From: an uncultured virus (IMG/VR IMGVR_UViG_3300037541_000827)
Taxonomy: Duplodnaviria; Heunggongvirae; Uroviricota; Caudoviricetes
Direction: 5' to 3' (one strand)
DNA: 20,000 nucleotides
IMG/VR virus record: IMGVR_UViG_3300037541_000827
Below are positions 3,167-12,645 of this stretch, one piece after another. Position 1 is the first letter of the stretch. Every line of letters begins with the position of its first letter. The notes beneath the pieces are model-generated. The model was not told where the DNA came from. It saw only the letters and a program-made list of their open reading frames with translations, and ran no database searches. The position numbers and the translations under genes are program-made.

Positions 3167-4017
3167 AGGTTAGGAACCTGTAACAGCGGCATCCCGCGAG
3201 GTGGCAGGGCGGCCGCGGCCTGGCGCAGGCGGTTGGGGTTGGGGCCCCGTTTCACGGGGATCCCAGATCGCTTCAGGGCACCGGAAACGATGGCGGATGG
3301 GATGGCGAACTCCCGGGCCATGGCGGCAACGGTCTGGCCCTCAATCCAGCCCTTGCGCAGCTGCTCGAGCAGCTCATCTGATGGCATTTCCTCCGGCAGG
3401 AGCTCACCGCGGCGGCGGCGGGCCCGCTCGACCGTCCGGGCCGAATTGTTGGGGCGATCGTGCTCCTGCAGCCAGGAGCGCACCGCCAGGGTGCTGCGAT
3501 TGATCATCTGCCCGATGACGGAGGCATCATGGCCCAGCGCCCGCAACCGCAGGCAGGTGGAGCTCTCCTCCGGAGTCCACTGCCGGTGGCCGTCGGTGAC
3601 GCTGCGCCTCTGCGCCCGGATGGTGACGCCGGCCGTCACCAGCAGGCTGCGAATCGCCGCACGGCTCACCTCATAGCTGCTGGCCAGGGCCTCGATGCTC
3701 TCCTCGGCCAAGTAGCGGTGCACCACCACCGCCACCGGGAGCCGGGGCTTCTGGGTGACGATCCCATCTCCACCGGCCTGGAGGTGGTTGGTGAAGCACC
3801 GGAACCTAAGCACCTCCCCACGGCTCCGGCGGGAATCGGCGAGGCTTGCGTAGATGCAGCTAAGGCTCCGCCCCAGCTCGTCCGCGATTGCACGGGCTGA
3901 GACGCCCTGCTGGTGAAGGGCATAGATCCGGGCATGCTCCTTCAGGCTCATGTCGCTGCCGCGGCGAGCACGTGGGGGAGCGGCGGGCGGAGCAGGCAGG
4001 TAGGCGGTGGCTGCCAC
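3163..4017 (-). CDS. Multi-HTH DNA-binding protein (about four tandem HTH units)
   Basis: GVSARAIADELGRSLSCIY; ESIEALASSYEVSRAAIRSLL; WTPEE...GHDASVIGQMINRSTLAVRSWL; GQTVAAMAREFAIPSAIVSGALKRSGI. Confidence 0.8.
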   Translation of the reverse strand: MAATAYLPAPPAAPPRARRGSDMSLKEHARIYALHQQGVSARAIADELGRSLSCIYASLADSRRSRGEVLRFRCFTNHLQAGGDGIVTQKPRLPVAVVVHRYLAEESIEALASSYEVSRAAIRSLLVTAGVTIRAQRRSVTDGHRQWTPEESSTCLRLRALGHDASVIGQMINRSTLAVRSWLQEHDRPNNSARTVERARRRRGELLPEEMPSDELLEQLRKGWIEGQTVAAMAREFAIPSAIVSGALKRSGIPVKRGPNPNRLRQAAAALPPRGMPLLQVPNL

Positions 4018-4020
4018 GGC

Positions 4021-4671
4021 TCAGCGGCCCATGTGGGCCAGTAGGGCCTCCGCAGCGCGGGCCAGGCGGGCTTCGGTGCTCTCCTCCTCCGGCAGCGCCT
4101 CCGCCAGGCGGCCCATCAGCTGCTGGAACTCCACCAGGGCCTCCTGGTCAGGAAACACCAGCTGGACCGTCAGGCCCGGGGAAGTCTCCGGGGGCGCTGG
4201 TGGATCGGGCATCTCATCGATCCCGTCGACCAGGGCCTTGAACTCGTCCTCGGTGAACCACGGGCTCAGGTCCAGCTCCGCATGGCCCTCCAGCAGGGCC
4301 GCCAGCGCCGCGCCGTTGAACTCCGAGGTGTCACTTGAGCGGTTGTCCGCCACCCCATATTCCGCCTTTTGTGCTGGGGAAAGATCTGTGCGCTGCACGG
4401 CCACCAGGGTGCGGCCATCGGCCGGGACCACCAACACCTTGTCGATGCCGATGGCGGCGGCCGCCTCGGCGGTGCCGTTGCCGGCAAGGATCACGCCGTT
4501 CTCATCCACCACCAGGGAGCGGGCGGCGCCGAACTCGCGCAGCGAGCGCTCGATCATCCCGGTGCTGCGCTGGGTGCGGCGCCGGGCGTTCGCGGGGTCC
4601 TGCAGCAGGGCCTCCAGCGTGGTCTCGGTCGGGGCGGTGACTGCTGCCAGGGGGGTGCGGCGTTTGGCCAT
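4021..4671 (-). CDS. ParB N-terminal-like (ParB/Srx) domain protein of the phage packaging region
   Basis: LQDPANARRRT...IERSLREFGAARSLVVDENGVILAGNGTAEAA...YGVADNRSS matches phage ParB-like proteins found upstream of terminases. Start chosen at ATG 4671 (MAKRRT). Confidence 0.85.
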   Translation of the reverse strand: MAKRRTPLAAVTAPTETTLEALLQDPANARRRTQRSTGMIERSLREFGAARSLVVDENGVILAGNGTAEAAAAIGIDKVLVVPADGRTLVAVQRTDLSPAQKAEYGVADNRSSDTSEFNGAALAALLEGHAELDLSPWFTEDEFKALVDGIDEMPDPPAPPETSPGLTVQLVFPDQEALVEFQQLMGRLAEALPEEESTEARLARAAEALLAHMGR

Positions 4672-4747
4672 GCGTGCAGAAGCAGAGCTATCGCACAACG
4701 TAGCCGAACCAGTACATACTCAGTCATTGAGGCGGCATCACACAGCG

Positions 4748-5617
4748 ATGACTTTCCGCACATCTTGCGGTGAGATCAATCCGGGCGGAAAATCACCCGT
4801 GGACGCCGCATCACGGCTGCAAACCCTGATGGAGTCAGGATTTCACTGGTCATCTGCAGGTAAAAGACTCGGGCTCACCAAATGGCAGATGAGGTGGTGG
4901 TGGAAGCAGATCGGATCGCACATTGCTGATCCTGTTGATCTGGCGCTGGCTCAGCGACTGATACAAGCGAACTACCAATCCAACGGGCCAGAGTTGTTCG
5001 ATGGCCTGATGCTTTGCCGCTGCGGGCGCAGGATGAAGCGGCCTGACCGTTGCGGGGCCTGTGGCAAACCCCATCGCTGGTCTTGCCCGGTCTGCCGGCT
5101 GCCCTGCGGCAAGCGGAACTGGGTACAGGCCGCGGCCATCAAGCGGGCGGTGTTTGAGGCCTTGCAGCGGCGGCTGCCGGAGCTGGTCCGGCTATGCGAG
5201 CACCGCACGCCGATGCAGCGGCAGCGGGAGCAGCAGTGGCTGCAAAAGCTGGAGGACTTCCTGAAGCTGAGGAGGGAGCTCCATGAAGCGGGCCTGCCAC
5301 GGATGGGCTATCCGACGATGGCAGCCCGAATGCAGCTGGTCTGGGACCAGGTTGGGGAGCCGTCTGAGCGCGACTGCTGGGGGAGGACGTTCAGAAGCTG
5401 GGGGGCCTGGGAGGGAGCCACCTCACACCAGTGGCGGATGGTGGCCGTCTACTTCTGCCGCAAGATCGTCTGGGATGGCGAACGGGTCAGAGTCCAGCTC
5501 TTCAAGCGGCGCTTTGTCGATCCACTGCTTATGAATGCCCAGCAGGACCCAGTTGATCGAGGACTGTGGCCAGTTCACTCCCTCCCCCCGAGTCACCCGG
5601 CTCATCGGGACCGCTGA
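4748..5617 (+). CDS. Large-serine-recombinase C-terminal-like protein (Zn ribbon plus coiled coil) lacking the catalytic domain
   Basis: ATG at 4748; LFDGLMLCRCGRRM Zn-ribbon start, CGAC/CPVC cysteines, WVQAAAIKRAVFEAL, charged helical region and C-terminal FCRKIVWDGERVRVQL. No Y-x-R-x-S resolvase motif. Confidence 0.65.
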   Translation: MTFRTSCGEINPGGKSPVDAASRLQTLMESGFHWSSAGKRLGLTKWQMRWWWKQIGSHIADPVDLALAQRLIQANYQSNGPELFDGLMLCRCGRRMKRPDRCGACGKPHRWSCPVCRLPCGKRNWVQAAAIKRAVFEALQRRLPELVRLCEHRTPMQRQREQQWLQKLEDFLKLRRELHEAGLPRMGYPTMAARMQLVWDQVGEPSERDCWGRTFRSWGAWEGATSHQWRMVAVYFCRKIVWDGERVRVQLFKRRFVDPLLMNAQQDPVDRGLWPVHSLPPSHPAHRDR

Positions 5618-8201: not shown

Positions 8202-8692
8202 CAGAGGCTCCCGGGCATGGAGGGCAACAGGCCGGCAACGGCTGCCAGGCTGTTGGCCTTCAGCTGGCGGACCTGCTCAGCGGTGGCCTGAACACCAGCG
8301 AGGGCGCGCTGGCGGCGATTGCGGTGGATGGTCTCGATGGCCTGCTGATCCAGCTCACAGCCCACCCTGCGAGGCCCGGCCGTGGTCTCGAGACGGCAAG
8401 GGCCGGCGGAATCGCGAAAGCCGCCGCGGCCTTCCCTGGGGTAGGCGGCATTGCAGCAGCAGATGATCGCCGGATCAGACCCGGGACAGACCTCCCCGGA
8501 AGGGAGGACGTCGTAGTCGGGGATGAAGTCGTTGATCGCCCGATCAGAGTTGCCGACGATGCCGGTGTCCGCGCAGGCAAAACACGCGAAACCAGGCAGG
8601 ACGAAAGCGGGGCCGGCGGCTGGGCGGCGCTTGTGCGGGGCTAGGGGCCCAGGTGCTGGAGCTGAGGGGAGCAAGGCTGAGGGGAGCGTCAT
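8201..8692 (-). CDS. Zn-binding replication-associated protein
   Basis: CFACADTG ... IICCCNAA motif; coupled (ATGA) directly downstream of the initiator. Resembles the Zn module preceding phage DnaC-like loaders, but no Walker A motif is present. Confidence 0.65.
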   Translation of the reverse strand: MTLPSALLPSAPAPGPLAPHKRRPAAGPAFVLPGFACFACADTGIVGNSDRAINDFIPDYDVLPSGEVCPGSDPAIICCCNAAYPREGRGGFRDSAGPCRLETTAGPRRVGCELDQQAIETIHRNRRQRALAGVQATAEQVRQLKANSLAAVAGLLPSMPGSL

Positions 8693-9972
8693 TGGCCGGT
8701 GACGTGACGGTGGTAGGCGAACGGGTCCGGGGCGCCGGTTTCTGGATCGATCGGGGCCTCGAATGCGGCGGAGGCGACGGGCTGGTTCTGCTGCAGGTAG
8801 GCGATGAAGCGCCTCTCCTTCAGCCAGCGAGCGATGTCAGGCAGGGATGGGGCAAAACCCGTGGAGGCGTGCTGCTGGTCCTGAGCGCGGATTTCAGCGG
8901 CCAGGGCCGCTACCAGCTGCTCGGCGGTGTGGCCCTCAGCCAGCACGGCGGAAAACTCTCTCTGGGCAGCGGGCAGAGATTGACAGGGGACCCGACGGGG
9001 CGCCGCCAGGTAGGAGCTGCGGAGGGTGTCGAAGGCGCCGGCGGCTGCAGGGCCGGCGCGGAACTGCTCACAGCGACGGCGGTAGCCGGTGACCAGGGTT
9101 TTGCAGCCGCTGGCGGCGGCGTGTTCGAGGAACGGCCGGAGGACCCCCAGGGCGTCGGCATGCTGAATGGCCTGGATGTCGCCAGCGCTGAGCTCGTTGG
9201 CCGCGGCGGGGTGCTTGCTGCGGCGCCTGAGCCACCACTCGCGCAGCAGCTGGCGGTATGGGTGGGCGCAGTCGGGAAGGGCTGAAGCGGTTGCTGGGGG
9301 CTGGGTTGCCGGTTGGGCATGGCGCTGGGGAGCGTCGTTGTGAGCTGAGGTTATCACGATCTCGACCGCTGTCGCGACGGGCTCGGCCGTCGTGACCGTT
9401 GGCGCAGCGGCATCGATTTTCTCGACGCGGTGGTGGATATATGTAGTGGAGTAATCAATTAACCCTTCTTGGATTTCTTCTTCTTCGTTTAGAGGTTTAT
9501 TGATTGGGTCCCCCCCAGGGGGAGTCCCCTCAGGGGGGAGGGGTCCCCTTCCGGGGGAGTCCCCTCCAGGGGGAGGGGGGGGGCCCTGGGGGGGAGTCCC
9601 CTCTGGGGGGAGGGGGGTTGCTGACTTGCGTTGCACTGCAATGGGTTTCGCGGTTCGCTTTTTGCGGCCTGTTTCCATACGGACCCGATACCGGTTTGTC
9701 CCGCCGGCTCCGGTGCCCGATTTGATGATCCAACCCTCACTAAGAAGGGTCGAAAGTGCTGTGCGGATGTCCCGTTCCTTCATGCCGCACTCCAGGGCGA
9801 GCCGAGGAACCGAAGGAAATGCGTTATCCGATTGGCCGGCGTAAAACCAGAGCCATCCATATACAAATACTAACCTCCTGCGTCCTATCTGTGCACAGCT
9901 GCTAAGTAAGTCGAGAGGGATTTGTGCAAACAGAGGGCGGTGCAACTCACCGGTAAAATCTTTGGTTGGCAT
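8689..9972 (-). CDS. Phage replication initiator (N-terminal winged HTH, internal origin, C-terminal domain)
   Basis: FAQIP...VYGWLWFYAGQSDNAFPSVPRLALECGMKERDIRTALSTLLSEGWII...GTNRYRV wHTH; repetitive linker; C-terminal LPDIARWLKERRF. Start chosen at ATG 9972. Confidence 0.85.
   Translation of the reverse strand: MPTKDFTGELHRPLFAQIPLDLLSSCAQIGRRRLVFVYGWLWFYAGQSDNAFPSVPRLALECGMKERDIRTALSTLLSEGWIIKSGTGAGGTNRYRVRMETGRKKRTAKPIAVQRKSATPLPPEGTPPQGPPPPPGGDSPGRGPLPPEGTPPGGDPINKPLNEEEEIQEGLIDYSTTYIHHRVEKIDAAAPTVTTAEPVATAVEIVITSAHNDAPQRHAQPATQPPATASALPDCAHPYRQLLREWWLRRRSKHPAAANELSAGDIQAIQHADALGVLRPFLEHAAASGCKTLVTGYRRRCEQFRAGPAAAGAFDTLRSSYLAAPRRVPCQSLPAAQREFSAVLAEGHTAEQLVAALAAEIRAQDQQHASTGFAPSLPDIARWLKERRFIAYLQQNQPVASAAFEAPIDPETGAPDPFAYHRHVTGQ
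9436..9617. repeat. Putative replication origin: iteron-like repeats plus adjacent AT-rich segment inside the initiator gene
   Basis: GGGGGAGTCCCCTC at 9518, 9553 and 9590 (35-37 bp period); GGGTCCCC at 9506 and 9541; AT-rich tract at about 9436-9505. Same layout as the lambda ori within gene O. Confidence 0.75.
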
Positions 9973-10036
9973 GTCAGGATCTGAGGTGGGTGGTTCCACT
10001 CCCTGAAGCCTGCGGATCGCGGCTGTTGCAGTAGGA

Positions 10037-10260
10037 TTGCCCTGTTGCGGCCATTGGTCCTGCTGGGGAGCGTGCCCGGTGGTCGCAGCCCGCGAGGGCA
10101 ACACTGGCTCCGTTTCGGCGGGGCCTTTGTTGTTTGCGGGAAACCGACCAACAGATCTGGACCGTAGCGGATTCGAGATGGTATGGACCAGTGCTGTCTC
10201 AAATCTGCTGCCGCACCGTTCCCTCGCATCTGCTGCATGGCGCTATGTGGTTGTTGCGAG
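10037..10260 (+). ncRNA. Candidate structured leader or small RNA
   Basis: Consecutive long hairpins at 10037-10101, 10106-10125, 10165-10210 (19 of 20 pairs) and 10223-10260, whose many G-U pairs form only on the + strand. Confidence 0.4.
10106..10135 (+). terminator. Intrinsic terminator-like hairpin
   Basis: GGCTCCGT-TTCG-GCGGGGCC (8-bp stem with two G-U pairs, UUCG loop) followed by TTTGTTGTTT. Confidence 0.6.
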
Positions 10261-10351
10261 TGCGCTTCGTAGGGTGGCGGCGTGATCTCGCTTAGCACTT
10301 ATGTTCGGTTCCAGATGGACCCGTTCCCGGCCCTCGCGGCTCAGAGCACCT

Positions 10352-11275
10352 ATGGATCAGCAGCAGCAACTGTCGCGGCCGCCAGGGTCAGAGCCCCTCA
10401 CCTCTGCTGCTCGAGGCCACTGGCTGATCACTGAGCAGAGCGGCCGTGAGGTCTTGCGCTCGTTGATCGAGCAGTGGCTGGACCACAACGGCTGGAGCCT
10501 GGCTGTCACTTCACGGCTGGCTGAGCTGGCCCTGCTGGCGCGATCCTCAGAACCGATCCTGGAGTGGGTCGCTGGCATGCCTCTGCAAGCCGGCCAATGG
10601 GTCAACCACCGCGGCCATGTCTGGGAGGCAATCGGAACACCAGCCTCTGAGCCCGCAGATGACGTCCCAGGTTGGCGTGATGTCAGCCTGAGCAGCCGCC
10701 TGCATTCCAGTGGGCTCAACCTGTTCCTGCGGCGCAAGAGCCGCATTCTGGCCAGCACGTTTTTTCTGGAGCTTGGGCGGCTGAATGAATGGGTCGCGGG
10801 CGTGCAGGCTGGCAGGCACGCGGCACCGACAGATCAGCGGCTCCGGGACTGCGTCGCCAGCGCACACGTGCTGCGCGATCAGCAGGGCGTCTTTGGGCCC
10901 GAAGAGCTCCTGTCCATTGCCATCGGTCGCCTCACCCCGGAGCCGCTTGTCAAAAAGCAGGCAGCAGCAGAGCAAGAGAGGCCTCCGGAGTGCATCTCAG
11001 GCCGCACGCTGCGCCAGGCCGCAAGCGCCGCTGGTTTGGACATCGTTGAGGACTGGGCCCAAATCAGCGAGCTCTACCCAGGCAAGGAGCCCGAGCGGCA
11101 GAATTTTCTCCGGCAGGTGCTGCTTGGCCTCGAAACCTGGGGACCTGAGCAGGTAGAGGGTGAGCAGCTCGCCACCCAGGTGCTGCTGCAGCGCTTGGAA
11201 GATCGAAAGGCGCAGCAGCTTGCAAAGGCCTCAGCCAAGCAGAAGGGCGCGGAAACGGCGATCAGTGTCGACTGA
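10352..11275 (+). CDS. Repressor-like (XRE-type HTH) protein with an inserted CBM5/12-like domain
   Basis: Divergent from the replication operon. LIEQWLDHNGWSLAVTSRLA ... LHSSGLNLFLRRK...TFFLELGRLN flank the segment EWVAGMPLQAGQWVNHRGHVWEAIGTPASEPADDVPGWRDV. Confidence 0.6.
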   Translation: MDQQQQLSRPPGSEPLTSAARGHWLITEQSGREVLRSLIEQWLDHNGWSLAVTSRLAELALLARSSEPILEWVAGMPLQAGQWVNHRGHVWEAIGTPASEPADDVPGWRDVSLSSRLHSSGLNLFLRRKSRILASTFFLELGRLNEWVAGVQAGRHAAPTDQRLRDCVASAHVLRDQQGVFGPEELLSIAIGRLTPEPLVKKQAAAEQERPPECISGRTLRQAASAAGLDIVEDWAQISELYPGKEPERQNFLRQVLLGLETWGPEQVEGEQLATQVLLQRLEDRKAQQLAKASAKQKGAETAISVD

Positions 11276-11540
11276 TCGGTGGATCGTTCAGTGGCCTGGC
11301 CTCCGGCGGGCGGCTCCATTCCATCTGGATCGGTTCTGCGCTGCTGTTTTCTGGCCTGAGCAGCAGTAGGCGCAGAGCGCTGCAGCTGAAGGCTTCTGTC
11401 AACACCTGCCGCTGTCGCCAGAAATAATCGGCGGCCGTAGCATGAAGAACTGTGACAGAGAGAACCCCCTCGCTGGTAGCCATGACGCAGCCAGGAGGGC
11501 CGTTAGGGACTTGATTCACGACGGCATGAACCGGCGACAT
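11262..11540 (-). CDS. Hypothetical protein
   Basis: ATG start, 92 aa, fills the gap between the repressor-like gene and the ERF promoter region. Confidence 0.45.
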   Translation of the reverse strand: MSPVHAVVNQVPNGPPGCVMATSEGVLSVTVLHATAADYFWRQRQVLTEAFSCSALRLLLLRPENSSAEPIQMEWSRPPEARPLNDPPISRH

Positions 11541-11556
11541 TACGAAGTCACAATGG

Positions 11557-11602
11557 TGCTAGTGTTCGGTGAGTGGGTCGGTGCAGCGTAACCGATGCAC
11601 TA
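11557..11602 (+). promoter_or_regulatory. Extended -10 promoter candidate overlapped by an inverted repeat
   Basis: TGcTAGTGT (TGnTAnnnT) at 11557-11565, about 60 nt upstream of the ERF ATG. TAGTGTTCGGT (11560-11570) and ACCGATGCACTA (11591-11602) form an imperfect inverted repeat. Confidence 0.45.
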
Positions 11603-11625
11603 CCAACCTCTCTCGCAACAGCTCG

Positions 11626-12645
11626 ATGGATCCCAGTACCCAGCCAGGGGCGCCACCGCCGCATCCTCCACCGCCTGCCTCCGGGGCGCCGGCCGCGGCC
11701 AGTCCACAGCTCTCCCACAGGGCACTGGAAGACTTCGCCCACCGCGCCAACCAGCAGATCGGCGTTCACGACCAGCAGATTCGCAACCAGGGGGCCGTGA
11801 TTGCCCAGCTCCGTTCAGAGATCCACGTGCTGGCCGAAGCGCAAGCCCACCACGACCAGACCAGCCGCCAAGAACAAGTCTTCAAGGACGACCAGCGGCG
11901 CCGGCTGATCGAGTTCCTCAACTACGAACCGGAATGCGAACAGCAGATGCAGCTATTTGCTGCATTCGCAGCATGGCACGCCACAGAGCCACGTTTGGTG
12001 GAAAACCGCCAGGCGGAGTACGCCACCAAGAAAGGCGGGACCATCTCCTACGGCTACGCCGATCTCGCCAGCGTCATCGCCACCGGCCAGAGCGCCGCCG
12101 CCATGGGCCTGTGCGCGGTCACCCGCCAGGAGCTGGATGACAACGGCACTCCGGTGGTTACTGGCTACCTGATCCACTCCGGCGGCGGTTGCGTCAGCAG
12201 CGGTCCCGTCCCCCTCTACATCGGCGAAAGCGATCGCCGCGGCCAGGCCCATGCCGCCGGTCTCACCACCTGCCGCCGGCTGGCCCTGCAGATGGTCCTT
12301 GGCCTTGCCGCTGAGCGTGATGACGATTTTAACGCCCCAGGCGACAGCCAGCCCCGCCATGCGCGCCAGGGCAACGGCCCACAGCAACAGCCGGTGCGGA
12401 CGGGCACAACACCCTCCCGCTCCGCTCCAGGCCCAGCAGGCGCCACCCAGCGCGGCCCTGCCGCCGCAGTCCGCCAAGGCCCACCGCCTGGGTGGATCAG
12501 CAAGGACGATCGCCGCGCCCTCGAGCAGGAGTTAGCGGATCCCGCCATCACTCCGCAGCGGTTCCAGGAGATCGAGGCGAAGCTCTTTGCCGCTGATCAG
12601 TTGGCCAATAAGGCCGCGGCAGCATCACAAGGCAACGCGCCATGA
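11626..12645 (+). CDS. erf: ERF-family single-strand annealing protein (divergent) with N-terminal coiled coil
   Basis: SYGYADLASVI...GL...LIHSGG...GQAHAAGLTTCRRLALQMVLGLAAERDDD follows the ERF pattern (Y-x-YA-x-L; H-x-SG; GSA-x-TYARRY-x-L...G...DDD). Confidence 0.8.
   Translation: MDPSTQPGAPPPHPPPPASGAPAAASPQLSHRALEDFAHRANQQIGVHDQQIRNQGAVIAQLRSEIHVLAEAQAHHDQTSRQEQVFKDDQRRRLIEFLNYEPECEQQMQLFAAFAAWHATEPRLVENRQAEYATKKGGTISYGYADLASVIATGQSAAAMGLCAVTRQELDDNGTPVVTGYLIHSGGGCVSSGPVPLYIGESDRRGQAHAAGLTTCRRLALQMVLGLAAERDDDFNAPGDSQPRHARQGNGPQQQPVRTGTTPSRSAPGPAGATQRGPAAAVRQGPPPGWISKDDRRALEQELADPAITPQRFQEIEAKLFAADQLANKAAAASQGNAP

Follow-up and report, generated by a model that had tools for sequence, protein, structure and literature searches.

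POU-specific domains keep DNA binding with a lengthened link between helices 2 and 3, and the HNF-1 homeodomain keeps it with a 21-residue insertion between the same two helices. Since both bind DNA despite these additions, an insertion at this position of a helix-turn-helix (HTH) need not abolish binding. The additions in the POU and HNF-1 proteins are loops, whereas the phage protein described here is predicted to carry an independently folding beta domain at this point; those proteins are also eukaryotic and unrelated to it in sequence. Modules of the CBM5/12 type, which the beta domain resembles, occur in chitinases, chitin deacetylases and phage tail fibers. The HTH scaffold around the module has a homolog in cyanophage P-SS2, for which the published description reports no identifiable repressor (PMC2784084).

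We analyzed a 20,000-nucleotide stretch of DNA (the window) from a lake cyanophage, in which the open reading frame at 10352..11275 (+ strand) encodes a 307-aa protein, designated P0001. An earlier note, made from the sequence alone, had described a repressor-like protein with a carbohydrate-binding-module-like domain inserted inside its HTH, and its coordinates are exact: the codons it assigned to the insert, 10562-10684, encode residues 71-111, EWVAGMPLQAGQWVNHRGHVWEAIGTPASEPADDVPGWRDV. Judged by its 80 homologs of ~300 aa, the ORF is a real gene. The majority of these homologs begin at a methionine equivalent to ATG 10352, and this start is preferred over an in-frame ATG further upstream at 10301, which falls within a conserved promoter-like box. 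All 24 sequencing runs were DNA metagenomes from lake or freshwater.

P0001 matched no Pfam family, no entry in PHROGs, NCBIfam or PADLOC, and no PDB sequence at E values up to 10. Neither the window DNA nor P0001 matched any GenBank phage, and the same was true of P0082; the nearest related virus record (4.7 kb) has no counterpart of the gene. A cluster look-up of 10 distant members of the family returned no informative names. The NHL-repeat protein P0099 was dismissed as a relative because its match was spurious.

Predicted fold of P0001 and its nested module

We modeled P0001 with AlphaFold2 (pLDDT 85.8) and assigned secondary structure with DSSP. The model opens with a long helix 1 (residues 18-46) and helix 2 (50-62, LAVTSRLAELALL); this segment, residues 18-62 (10403..10537, + strand), contains the superfamily motif NGWS, which is common to insert-free families. 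Residues 116-198 (10697..10945, +) make up the helix 3 region, helix 4 (135-152), a beta hairpin and a further helix (183-190). Helix 3 itself spans 119-126 (SSGLNLFL), and its region, RLHSSGLNLFLRRKSR, is basic, with a net charge of +5 when the turn is included. The [LI]HSSQ-type start of helix 3 is the superfamily's most conserved motif, and the helix is nearly invariant among phages otherwise diverged to ~50% identity. A weakly HTH-like helical domain follows at the C-terminus (residues 211-299; 10982..11248, +), ending with a long helix (265-299).

Structural comparison in VIA pointed to an XRE-type domain. Of the 50 matches listed for P0001, 34 were XRE-type HTH chains aligned with model residues ~21-203, for example 2ofy_B (Z 6.5, 80/80 residues) and 3f6w_A (Z 6.2), although the tool calls Z 6-7 common for helical domains and a Z below 8 may reflect a common arrangement. 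At Z 5-7.3, solved chains were covered in their entirety (80/80, 77/77, 66/66) and had the five-helix arrangement in common with P0001; besides 2ofy and 3f6w, the XRE-type matches listed include C.BclI (2b5a), C.AhdI (1y7y), HigA (2ict/6chv), TP901-1 CI (6tri), SinR (1b0n), P22 c2 (2r1j) and the 434 repressor (1per). POU-specific domains (Oct4, Brn-5) ranked 3 and 7 for P0001, and 6, 16 and 30 for the model of an insert-free relative (pLDDT 88.9). For that second model, 47 of the 50 listed matches lay on the N-terminal domain and nearly all were XRE-type (top Z 7.3). On the evidence of these two models, the N-terminal part is a lambda-repressor-like (XRE-type) five-helix fold, and the earlier reading of the sequence flanking the insert as an XRE-like HTH is borne out structurally. 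The C-terminal domain accounted for 5 of the 50 listed matches of P0001 (Aca10, HNF-1A, FocB, C.Kpn2I and Aca2; Z 4.8-5.6) and for 3 of the 50 of the insert-free model. No S24 chain was among the 50 listed for either model; with no S24 match in Pfam and a helical C-terminal part in the model, the absence of this autocleavage domain, remarked on earlier, held up.

The XRE likeness has limits. No Pfam HTH family was matched by P0001, by any of 19 relatives (E values up to 10), or by P0098 and P0100, and NCBIfam gave none either. When the canonical HTH_3 protein that the phages themselves encode, represented by an alignment of only four near-identical rows, was compared in hhalign, the probabilities were 0.8% and 0.2%. 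The fold matches also include members that do not bind DNA, namely RodZ, HppE, HEPD, MPnS and cyanase. The link between helices 2 and 3 takes up residues 63-118 (~56 residues) in P0001, compared with residues 51-60 (10 residues) in the insert-free model, so that the tight turn between these helices is absent even without the insert. P0001 thus resembles XRE domains in its basic helix 3 and in a predicted dimer formed via helices 4 and 5, and differs from them in lacking a Pfam HTH match, in having a folded domain in the helix 2-3 link and in its extra C-terminal domain.

The nested module occupies residues 63-115 (10538..10696, +), with a core at 71-111. As the earlier note had placed it, the module sits in the AlphaFold2 model between the helix at 50-62 and that at 119-126. 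It is acidic (net charge -4) and predicted to form a three-stranded antiparallel sheet (83-86, 89-93, 108-113). In a Foldseek search of the PDB, 33 of the 36 listed matches were chitinases, chitin- or cellulose-binding domains or chito-oligosaccharide deacetylases; E values for the CBM-type matches were 0.03-0.5 (best 0.032). VIA aligned 49 residues of the module with 8yug_A (Z 7.3, rmsd 2.6) and 49 with a further match (Z 7.1), and superposed 4hmc_A with an rmsd of 1.5 over 42 residues at 26% identity. For the whole P0001 model, 10 of the 50 listed matches were CBM5/12-type modules confined to residues 49-118 (top Z 7.3). Among viral models in BFVD, the closest were tail-fiber, baseplate and ChiA1_BD/ChiC_BD proteins (rmsd 1.1-1.2, 44-49 residues), and the ChiB module is 27-30% identical to the insert.

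The sequence of the module carries the same signal. The CBM pattern W-x5-[YL]-x2-G-x2-V-x3-G-x2-[YW]-x-A turned up a single time when the window was translated in six frames and never in 300 mononucleotide shuffles, and across related loci it was found only in homologs of P0001. All 24 aligned homologs keep the core stretch: G81, G88, H89, W91 and A93 are invariant, and conservation is 90% or higher at W72, H86, P97, S99, E100, P101 and W108. The module's loops differ by up to ~20 residues among distant insert-bearing members. We conclude that the module, as modeled, has a CBM5/12-type fold, and the CBM5/12 assignment made earlier for the insert stands at the level of fold (33/36 listed Foldseek matches, VIA Z 7.3, pattern in 24/24).

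The cut-off of Pfam CBM_5_12 (PF02839; ChtBD3 in SMART) was reached by no member among P0001 and 19 relatives searched at E values up to 10; the sole sub-threshold match, in P0083 (E 5.7e-4), scored 20.3 bits against a cut-off of 26.2 and lay at residues 37-56, within the insert. Taken alone, the module could be aligned with each of the two CBM repeats in a chitin deacetylase from Vibrio (E 0.43). The A2 profile reached only E 0.47-2.1 against PDB sequences, the best match being All3316 of the Anabaena injection system, aligned over the module. The remaining PDB matches of this profile look like noise. Viral CBM_5_12 clusters in the ESM Atlas scored 0.79-0.81, under the tool's trusted level, and serve as a lead only. 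A search with residues 62-116 among 78 longer candidate proteins found no donor of the module at E values up to 10. Fold and core pattern are therefore what the module has in common with the CBM5/12 domains of chitinases, chitin deacetylases and phage tail fibers; unlike them, it is nested in the HTH domain of a protein that has neither a secretion nor a virion context, is acidic, and falls under the Pfam cut-off.

P0001 is probably a homodimer of cytoplasmic type, to judge from structure prediction. The homodimer scored 0.72 against 0.00 for the best of three controls. Of 30 benchmark proteins whose structures were solved as pairs of one chain, 20 reached that score, compared with 1 of 23 for those solved as a single chain; these counts hold only roughly because our alignment was self-built, and resemblance to solved XRE dimers may raise the score. 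Runs agreed in at least 85% of contacts, with a partner pLDDT of at least 79. The predicted interface comprises residues 22-32, 61-65, 90, 111-114, 132-139 and 183-193, where 132-139 and 183-193 belong to helices 4 and 5, and does not involve helix 3. Within the module, residues 90 and 111-114, together with those at its base (61-65), would contact helix 1 of the partner chain, for example residue 90 with residue 25.

Insert-free relatives in phages and hosts

Natural homologs exist that have no module, and the module is thus, by sequence comparison, a true insertion into the scaffold. An alignment of homologs with and without the insert had been proposed as a check on this; when insert-bearing (A1) and insert-free (A3) alignments were compared in hhalign, they matched at 99.2% probability (E 2.2e-19, 204 columns) with a gap exactly over the module. 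In a 41-row tree, one branch (support 99/98) parts 26 insert-bearing from 15 insert-free rows. The module is kept in all 26 insert-bearing rows, and also in an insert-bearing copy found amid host genes. The helix 2-3 loop is already long, and variable in length, in the insert-free relatives. The ~50-residue CBM5/12-fold beta module would have entered this loop in the lineage of P0001, most simply in a single event.

Two insert-free relatives place the scaffold in a wider setting. The first is gp103 of cyanophage P-SS2 (NC_013021), annotated as a hypothetical protein, which matches the insert-free alignment A3 at 98.9% (E 3.7e-17) and the insert-bearing A1 at 72% (E 3.3e-5), and is at most ~23% identical to P0001 relatives. 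The second is chromosomal: an insert-free scaffold gene is present in 345 of the 401 host-family genomes sampled, a family that we take, partly from MAG titles, to be Prochlorococcus/Synechococcus/Cyanobium. The host protein, which has no CBM insert, matches A3 at 99.4% (E 2e-21). In 4/4 loci examined its gene adjoins a DesA-family desaturase gene in a non-prophage context, and it is divergent from the desaturase in the three loci where the ORF call caught the gene (L088, L096 and L097), a layout that is usual for a local transcription factor. Neither gp103 nor the host homolog matched anything in Pfam, NCBIfam or PHROGs.

Gene neighborhood and conserved intergenic elements

The P0001 gene lies between replication and recombination genes. 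Its divergent neighbor (8689..10104, - strand) encodes a replication-initiator-like protein (HTH_36, E 1.1e-7; phrog_270, E 7.6e-13), starts at GTG 10104 or ATG 9972, and is found in 20 of 21 loci. Downstream, at 11569..12645 (+), is a gene for an ERF-family single-strand annealing protein (Pfam ERF, E 8.2e-6; phrog_2324, E 4.7e-11), possibly starting at ATG 11626 and present in 19 of 21 loci; this flanking by Rep and ERF genes is common to the window and 19-20 of the 21 loci. Between P0001 and ERF, a 92-aa ORF (11262..11540, -), conserved by tblastn in 18/21 loci, is convergent with the P0001 gene, their 3' ends overlapping by 14 nt, and divergent from ERF. Its relatives have a VTVLHAAAADL-type motif in common; it has no match in Pfam, PHROGs, NCBIfam or PADLOC, and the ESM Atlas returned only unnamed cyanobacterial clusters.

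This arrangement extends beyond the insert-bearing phages. As in the window, gp103 of P-SS2 is positioned between replication and recombination genes, with dnaB/primase on one side and RecT and int on the other, and all four annotated insert-free contigs have a Prim-Pol helicase on one side and an SSB-like protein and exonuclease on the other. In all three annotated phage lineages the scaffold gene heads the recombination operon and is divergent from the replication genes, which are mutually unrelated between the lineages.

A promoter- or operator-like box, CTTATGTTCGG (10298..10308, +), lies 44 nt 5' of the P0001 start codon and is conserved across loci. A second copy, CTAGTGTTCGG (11559..11569, +), precedes the ERF operon and reads GGTGCTAGTGTTCG in related loci. 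Exact matches to CTWRTGTTCGG in the window are confined to these two boxes; with at most one mismatch there are four sites against 0.49 expected, a number reached in 0 of 200 shuffles. A repeat search of both flanking regions turned up short two-copy families only and no convincing dyad operator.

Between the rep gene and the P0001 gene lies a conserved structured-RNA-like element (10046..10207, +). A terminator scan found a terminator-like hairpin in it at 10106-10125, followed by a T run. Paired cells make up 96.1% of the element, compared with 38-55% after sliding, and six pairs have changed on both sides. Its core pattern occurs in exactly 17 viral contigs (loci L001-L017), and it corresponds to no Rfam family and no tRNA. 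Among 201 host-family genomes it was found only in G007, two other 35-nt matches lying inside a coding region. The idea that it is an attP core derived from a host RNA gene was unsupported, as it occurs once per Cyanobium MAG, on a phage contig.

Candidate roles for P0001

The reading we prefer, which we consider to have about an even chance of being correct, is that P0001 works as an early regulator, binding DNA as a dimer and docking a partner on its acidic CBM-like knob. Built on a scaffold of an N-terminal XRE-type domain with an unusually long helix 2-3 loop and a C-terminal helical domain, the protein would regulate the phage's early replication and recombination region. The basic helix 3 would recognize DNA in the divergent control regions on both sides of the gene. 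The acidic knob lies right next to this helix and would serve to dock a partner, more likely a protein than a glycan, that tunes how P0001 binds DNA or how stable its dimer is. The analysis showed the gene, its fold, the point of insertion, the relatives lacking the module and a conserved gene order, and it predicted the dimer; that P0001 binds DNA, where it would bind and whether it has a ligand are what we infer here. In favor of a regulator are a conserved helix 3 with a net charge of +5 that the predicted dimer leaves free, the identical box type preceding the P0001 gene and the ERF operon, the gene order in three lineages, and the desaturase-side layout of the host homolog. Against it are the lack of a match to HTH sequence models, the modest Z scores and non-DNA-binding members of the fold, a loose helix 2-3 link, and no convincing dyad operator; an acidic 50-residue knob by helix 3 could impede the approach to DNA, and the near-invariance of helix 3 is unlike the pattern of immunity repressors.

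This last point bears on the proposal, made in the earlier note, of a lysis-lysogeny regulator at the CI position. A CI-type repressor whose CBM module senses a sugar or cell-wall fragment would agree with the repressor-like fold, the matches to which include TP901-1 CI, P22 c2, the 434 repressor, Stl and ImmR, with a free-standing gene between two outward-facing early operons, and with the chitin-type glycans bound by solved CBM5/12 modules according to their entry titles. The position itself is unsupported, the gene being divergent from a replication-initiator gene rather than a cro-like gene, and a scan of 88 small ORFs in the window revealed no cro- or CI-like HTH at E values up to 0.001. 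We also examined five related phage records (58-69 kb; CheckV completeness at least 96% in four and 82% in one). A large serine recombinase is encoded in two of them, as a temperate reading would allow, but none of the five showed ParB or a tyrosine integrase scoring over the Pfam cut-off, and three, the closest relative G002 among them, have no recombinase of either kind. The only match to an integrase PHROG in the window, in the ORF at 4007-5617, is weak (E 5.6e-4). Also in favor of the lysogeny proposal, gp103 adjoins bet and int in a phage whose authors identified no repressor (PMC2784084). The tyrosine-integrase result, a canonical HTH_3 protein of 75 aa that all five related phages encode separately at another place in their genomes, and the insert-free chromosomal homologs in 345/401 host-family genomes speak against it, as do the lack of S24, a helix 3 that is conserved rather than diversified, and a CBM_5_12 cut-off met by no member (20.3 vs 26.2 bits in the one of 19 relatives that came near). 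We regard a sugar-sensing CI-type repressor as distinctly improbable.

Two other accounts dispense with either DNA binding or a ligand. P0001 could be a protein-protein adaptor of the replication and recombination machinery, for instance a partner of the annealing protein or the initiator. In three lineages the gene lies directly 5' of one for an annealing or ssDNA-binding protein, the fold matches include the protein-binding pairs RodZ-MreB (2wus), Stl with the Sak annealing protein (8qe9) and Stl-dUTPase (8p8o), and the module is acidic; the helix 3 motif does not vary among widely differing phages and the host, which is what a conserved protein or structural target would lead one to expect. 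We nevertheless find an adaptor role fairly unlikely, given that the host homolog adjoins a desaturase gene rather than recombination genes and that the dimer model leaves the basic helix 3 region free. Alternatively, the insert may have no ligand and act as a structural add-on that steadies the dimer or the long helix 2-3 loop. Its predicted contacts with partner helix 1 (residues 90, 111-114 and 61-65), the long and length-variable loop of insert-free relatives, and the ~20-residue variation of the module's own loops in distant members would suit such a role, yet positions that need not belong to the core are strongly conserved (H86 and S99-E100-P101 at least 90%, H89 invariant) and the module persists in 26/26 insert-bearing rows and in the copy among host genes. 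A purely structural insert seems to us rather unlikely.

A more far-reaching reading, which we hold to be quite improbable, is that P0001 mimics a core regulator of picocyanobacteria in a ligand-gated manner, with the nested CBM-type module coupling the switch to a signal. Having kept the host's DNA-reading helix ([LI]HSSQ), P0001 could take over the sites of the host protein, or form pairs with it, in the course of infection, and would also control the phage's own replication and recombination promoters. The module, probably from a phage tail-fiber gene, would link this switch to a glycan, envelope-derived or protein signal. If true, this would be a previously undescribed sensor design, with a binding domain inside the helix-turn-helix itself.

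A folded module between helix 2 and the recognition helix is an unusual architecture, and our search of the literature for a folded binding module at this position of an HTH found no description of one. Should P0001 still bind DNA, it would provide a naturally occurring case of a sensor domain grafted where DNA is read. Picocyanobacteria have few transcription factors, and most of the host-family genomes sampled carry the scaffold, an unnamed family whose fold now points to a regulator. In phages, gp103 becomes a testable candidate for the repressor left unidentified in the P-SS2 paper (PMC2784084), which bears on the question of lysogeny in picocyanobacteria.

A carbohydrate-binding-like module nested in an XRE-like fold

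The window, with a G+C content of 58-69%, is phage DNA. It encodes terminase-like, DUF2303 and M15 peptidase genes, a replication-initiator-like gene (rep; 8689-10104, minus strand; HTH_36, phrog_270) and an ERF annealing protein (11569-12645, plus strand). Between the last two lies the gene under study, whose 307-aa product we call P0001 (10352-11275, plus strand). The peptide singled out in an earlier note is exactly residues 71-111 of P0001. A six-frame translation of the window contains a single match to its CBM5/12 pattern and 300 shuffles contain none; among related loci, the pattern is confined to P0001 homologues. A large protein collection holds 80 such homologues of about 260-350 aa, all without a name, and P0001 has 23 matches among 50%-identity representatives. 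Residues 71-111 are among the best-conserved parts of the protein in a 24-row alignment, in which G81, G88, H89, W91 and A93 are invariant. This is a genuine gene, and its motif is not a chance match.

AlphaFold2, given the 24-row alignment, produced a confident model (mean pLDDT 85.8, pTM 0.60). N-terminal helices (18-46, 50-62) precede the module strands (83-86, 89-93, 108-113), which are followed by helices 119-126, 135-152 and others, ending in a long helix at 265-299. The module strands fall between helix 50-62 and helix 119-126, and what the earlier note had observed (gene, peptide, motif and placement) is borne out in full. Foldseek against the PDB returned nothing at E 0.001 or better; 33 of the 36 matches listed are chitinases, isolated chitin- or cellulose-binding domains or chito-oligosaccharide deacetylases (about 45-54 columns, 18-30% identity, best E 0.032), and of the other three, one is a phage tail fibre and two are chains from an Anabaena contractile injection system. 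VIA, a Foldseek-independent structure search of 48,161 chains, listed 50 matches. Ten are CBM5/12-type modules within residues 49-118, led by 8yug_A (Z 7.3, rmsd 2.6, 49 residues), and 34 are XRE-type HTH chains that align over about residues 21-203 and so bridge the module. The XRE-type group includes 2ofy_B (Z 6.5, 80/80 residues), C.BclI, HigA, TP901-1 CI, SinR, P22 c2 and the Oct4 POU-specific domain; five further matches lie on the C-terminal domain (Z 4.8-5.6) and one is ambiguous. No full-length match came from BFVD; the module itself was matched by many tail-fibre, baseplate and ChiA1_BD/ChiC_BD proteins (44-49 residues at rmsd 1.1-1.2, 25-31% identity). Sequence comparison points weakly in the same direction as the fold: Pfam CBM_5_12 appeared inside the insert of one of 19 relatives (E 5.7e-4; 20.3 bits, under the cut-off of 26.2), and the module alone could be aligned to each of the two CBM repeats in a Vibrio chitin deacetylase (E 0.43).

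HTH family models in Pfam and NCBIfam matched neither P0001 nor the relatives scanned, and an hhalign comparison with the canonical 75-aa HTH_3 protein that the phages themselves encode, represented by just four near-identical rows, found nothing. VIA Z scores of 6-7 are in a range common among helical domains, the fold match lists also hold non-DNA-binding users (RodZ, HppE, HEPD, MPnS, cyanase), and the link between helix 2 and helix 3 is long in insert-free members too. On these grounds we file P0001, as modelled, under an XRE-like fold and do not assign it to HTH_3.

Insert-free relatives in phages and hosts

The search of 50%-identity representatives also yielded short relatives without the module, P0098 and P0100, the former with 52 relatives of about 240 aa. 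Profile-profile alignment of the insert-bearing and insert-free families (99.2% probability, E 2.2e-19, 204 columns) contains a sole large gap, which is exactly the module. This comparison of homologues with and without the insert, which the earlier note had proposed, establishes the CBM-like module as an insertion. The insert-free family gave a confident model (pLDDT 88.9) in which a 10-residue loop joins helix 39-50 to helix 61-68; 47 of its 50 listed VIA matches are on the N-terminal domain, almost all of them XRE-type HTH, with a top Z of 7.3 and whole chains covered. A maximum-likelihood tree of 41 rows, which does not fix the position of the root, has one branch (support 99/98) parting 26 insert-bearing from 15 insert-free sequences. 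As the module is absent from the canonical domains of the XRE-type fold, a single gain is the simplest reading.

The family extends into hosts. Its profile found matches in 345 of the 401 genomes sampled from the taxonomic family of a Cyanobium MAG; nearly all of these matches cover the region behind the insert and lie in ORFs of about 256-280 aa. One such host protein is homologous over its full length and lacks the insert (hhalign 99.4%, E 2e-21). Its gene (L088:1390-2160, L096:5027-5803, L097:5140-5916) adjoins a DesA-family desaturase gene in all four loci examined, and is divergent from it in these three; rplI is nearby in three of the four, and dnaB was identified in one. The setting is an ordinary chromosomal one, arranged as for a local regulator. 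Neither Pfam nor NCBIfam names the protein, which has the look of an uncharacterised XRE-like regulator in picocyanobacteria. Upstream of it (L096:4965-5026, L097:5076-5139, L088:1335-1389) we noted by eye the sequence AATGGTAGCAGT[AT]CGG, resembling the phage AATGGTGCTAGTGTTCGG at 11552-11569 of the window, and, in two genomes, the palindrome ACGGATCCGT with a flanking 9-nt inverted repeat. These are possible shared operators.

Insert-bearing copies were found in just two of the 401 genomes, one on the phage contig of genome G007 and one in genome G128. The latter (P0153; L100:16590-17465, equivalent to G128:C61:36590-37465) is surrounded by ordinary host genes: on its upstream side ndhM and the genes for phytoene desaturase and phytoene synthase, on its downstream side those for a hydrolase and an RRM protein. 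Of the 76 ORFs of at least 100 aa on this 80-kb contig, 46 were scanned and showed no phage gene; the CBM-bearing form therefore occurs outside phages too.

Gene placement and control regions

Of 21 related loci, 19 are on viral contigs and two on contigs of Cyanobium MAGs. They keep one gene order: minus-strand rep (20/21), the plus-strand P0001 gene, a minus-strand 92-aa ORF (18/21) and plus-strand ERF (19/21). The 92-aa ORF (11262-11540), convergent with the P0001 gene and divergent from ERF, shares a common VTVLHAAAADL-type motif, matched no family in any library searched, and carries one internal stop in L020; together with the P0001 gene, it occupies the space between two outward-facing early operons. 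Elsewhere in the window, a conserved 536-aa ORF (4007-5617, plus strand) has matches in 9 of 21 loci at 60-81% identity, two of them covering just 33-73 residues. Its sole family match is a weak one to the integrase PHROG phrog_95 (E 5.6e-4, residues 314-400), with none in Pfam or NCBIfam.

The insert-free family was found in 31 other viral contigs, which have no further protein in common with the window. In all four that were annotated, the gene is divergent from a replication gene (Prim-Pol/AAA_25 primase-helicase) and heads a run with an SSB-like protein and a PD-(D/E)XK exonuclease. The sole cultured relative found is gp103 of cyanophage P-SS2, annotated as hypothetical (L079:5938-6678; tblastn E 3e-10). 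It is insert-free, aligning by hhalign at 98.9% (E 3.7e-17) with the insert-free family and at 72% (E 3.3e-5) with the insert-bearing one, and is divergent from a dnaB/primase run and followed by a RecT-like bet gene and an integrase. According to the P-SS2 genome paper, the phage encodes int, exo and bet and has no repressor that could be identified (Sullivan et al., 2009; PMC2784084); gp103 is a candidate for that repressor. The rep/ERF, P-SS2 and Prim-Pol lineages share this placement, indicating that the scaffold gene has been kept at the junction of three unrelated replication/recombination modules.

An 11-nt box, CT[AT][AG]TGTTCGG, has exact plus-strand copies at 10298-10308 and 11559-11569, upstream of the P0001 gene and of the ERF operon; related phage loci retain it. 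At up to one mismatch there are four sites against 0.49 expected, a number reached in none of 200 shuffles, and the box may be a shared early promoter or operator. An alternative ATG for P0001, at 10301, is inside the first copy, which favours the start at 10352. Between rep and the P0001 gene, 10046-10207 is conserved far above coding DNA and folds on the plus strand with G-U pairs and GNRA-type loops; pairing holds in 96.1% of cells, against 38-55% when slid, and six pairs are changed on both sides. The element contains a terminator-like hairpin (10106-10125) and is antisense to the 5' part of the rep ORF in its longest form. It has no match in Rfam and was not found in 200 other host-family genomes searched, and the viral contigs that carry its core are exactly the 17 behind L001-L017. 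It could be a rep countertranscript, a leader or an origin element.

A predicted dimer and the role of P0001

P0001 passed homodimer prediction with a score of 0.72 against a best of 0.00 for three controls, at least 85% of contacts agreeing in the runs and partner pLDDT being at least 79. Of 30 proteins solved as one-chain pairs, 20 attained this mark, as did 1 of 23 solved as single chains; these counts hold only roughly here since the alignment was custom-built, and resemblance to solved XRE dimers may lift the score. The predicted interface is symmetric and comprises helix 1 (22-32), the module base and one edge (61-65, 90, 111-114), helix 4 (132-139) and helix 183-193. Helix 3 lies outside it, and its region, RLHSSGLNLFLRRKSR, has a net charge of +5; the module has -4. 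In this model, a basic, exposed helix 3 is compatible with DNA binding, and the acidic knob beside it would fit partner binding or gating better than a DNA-contacting "wing".

We place roughly even confidence in P0001 acting as a dimer that binds DNA and regulates the early replication/recombination region, with the nested CBM5/12-fold knob as a partner-binding surface; its scaffold is one that it shares with a widespread host protein. An adaptor without DNA binding is unlikely. Next in our ranking, and about as unlikely, is a purely structural insert, whose base and one edge contribute to the predicted interface. No published description of an XRE fold combined with a CBM5 insert was found in the literature searched.

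The earlier note had described P0001 as a repressor-like protein in the CI position that may sense a sugar; it was right about the architecture and probably overstated the CI analogy. A sugar-sensing CI, which the chitin-binding matches of the module would suit, is improbable, and the lifestyle of the phages bears on it. Five related phage records (58-69 kb; direct terminal repeats in three; CheckV at least 96% in four and 82% in one) include no tyrosine integrase above cut-off and no ParB, and two encode a serine recombinase. All five also encode, far from the P0001 locus, the separate 75-aa HTH_3 protein, more than 90% identical when their other proteins share just about 50-65%, conservation that is unusual for a phage regulator. 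From the recombinase and ParB counts and the P-SS2 context, a lysogeny-repressor role is possible in some lineages, P-SS2 among them, and is not indicated for the closest relatives.
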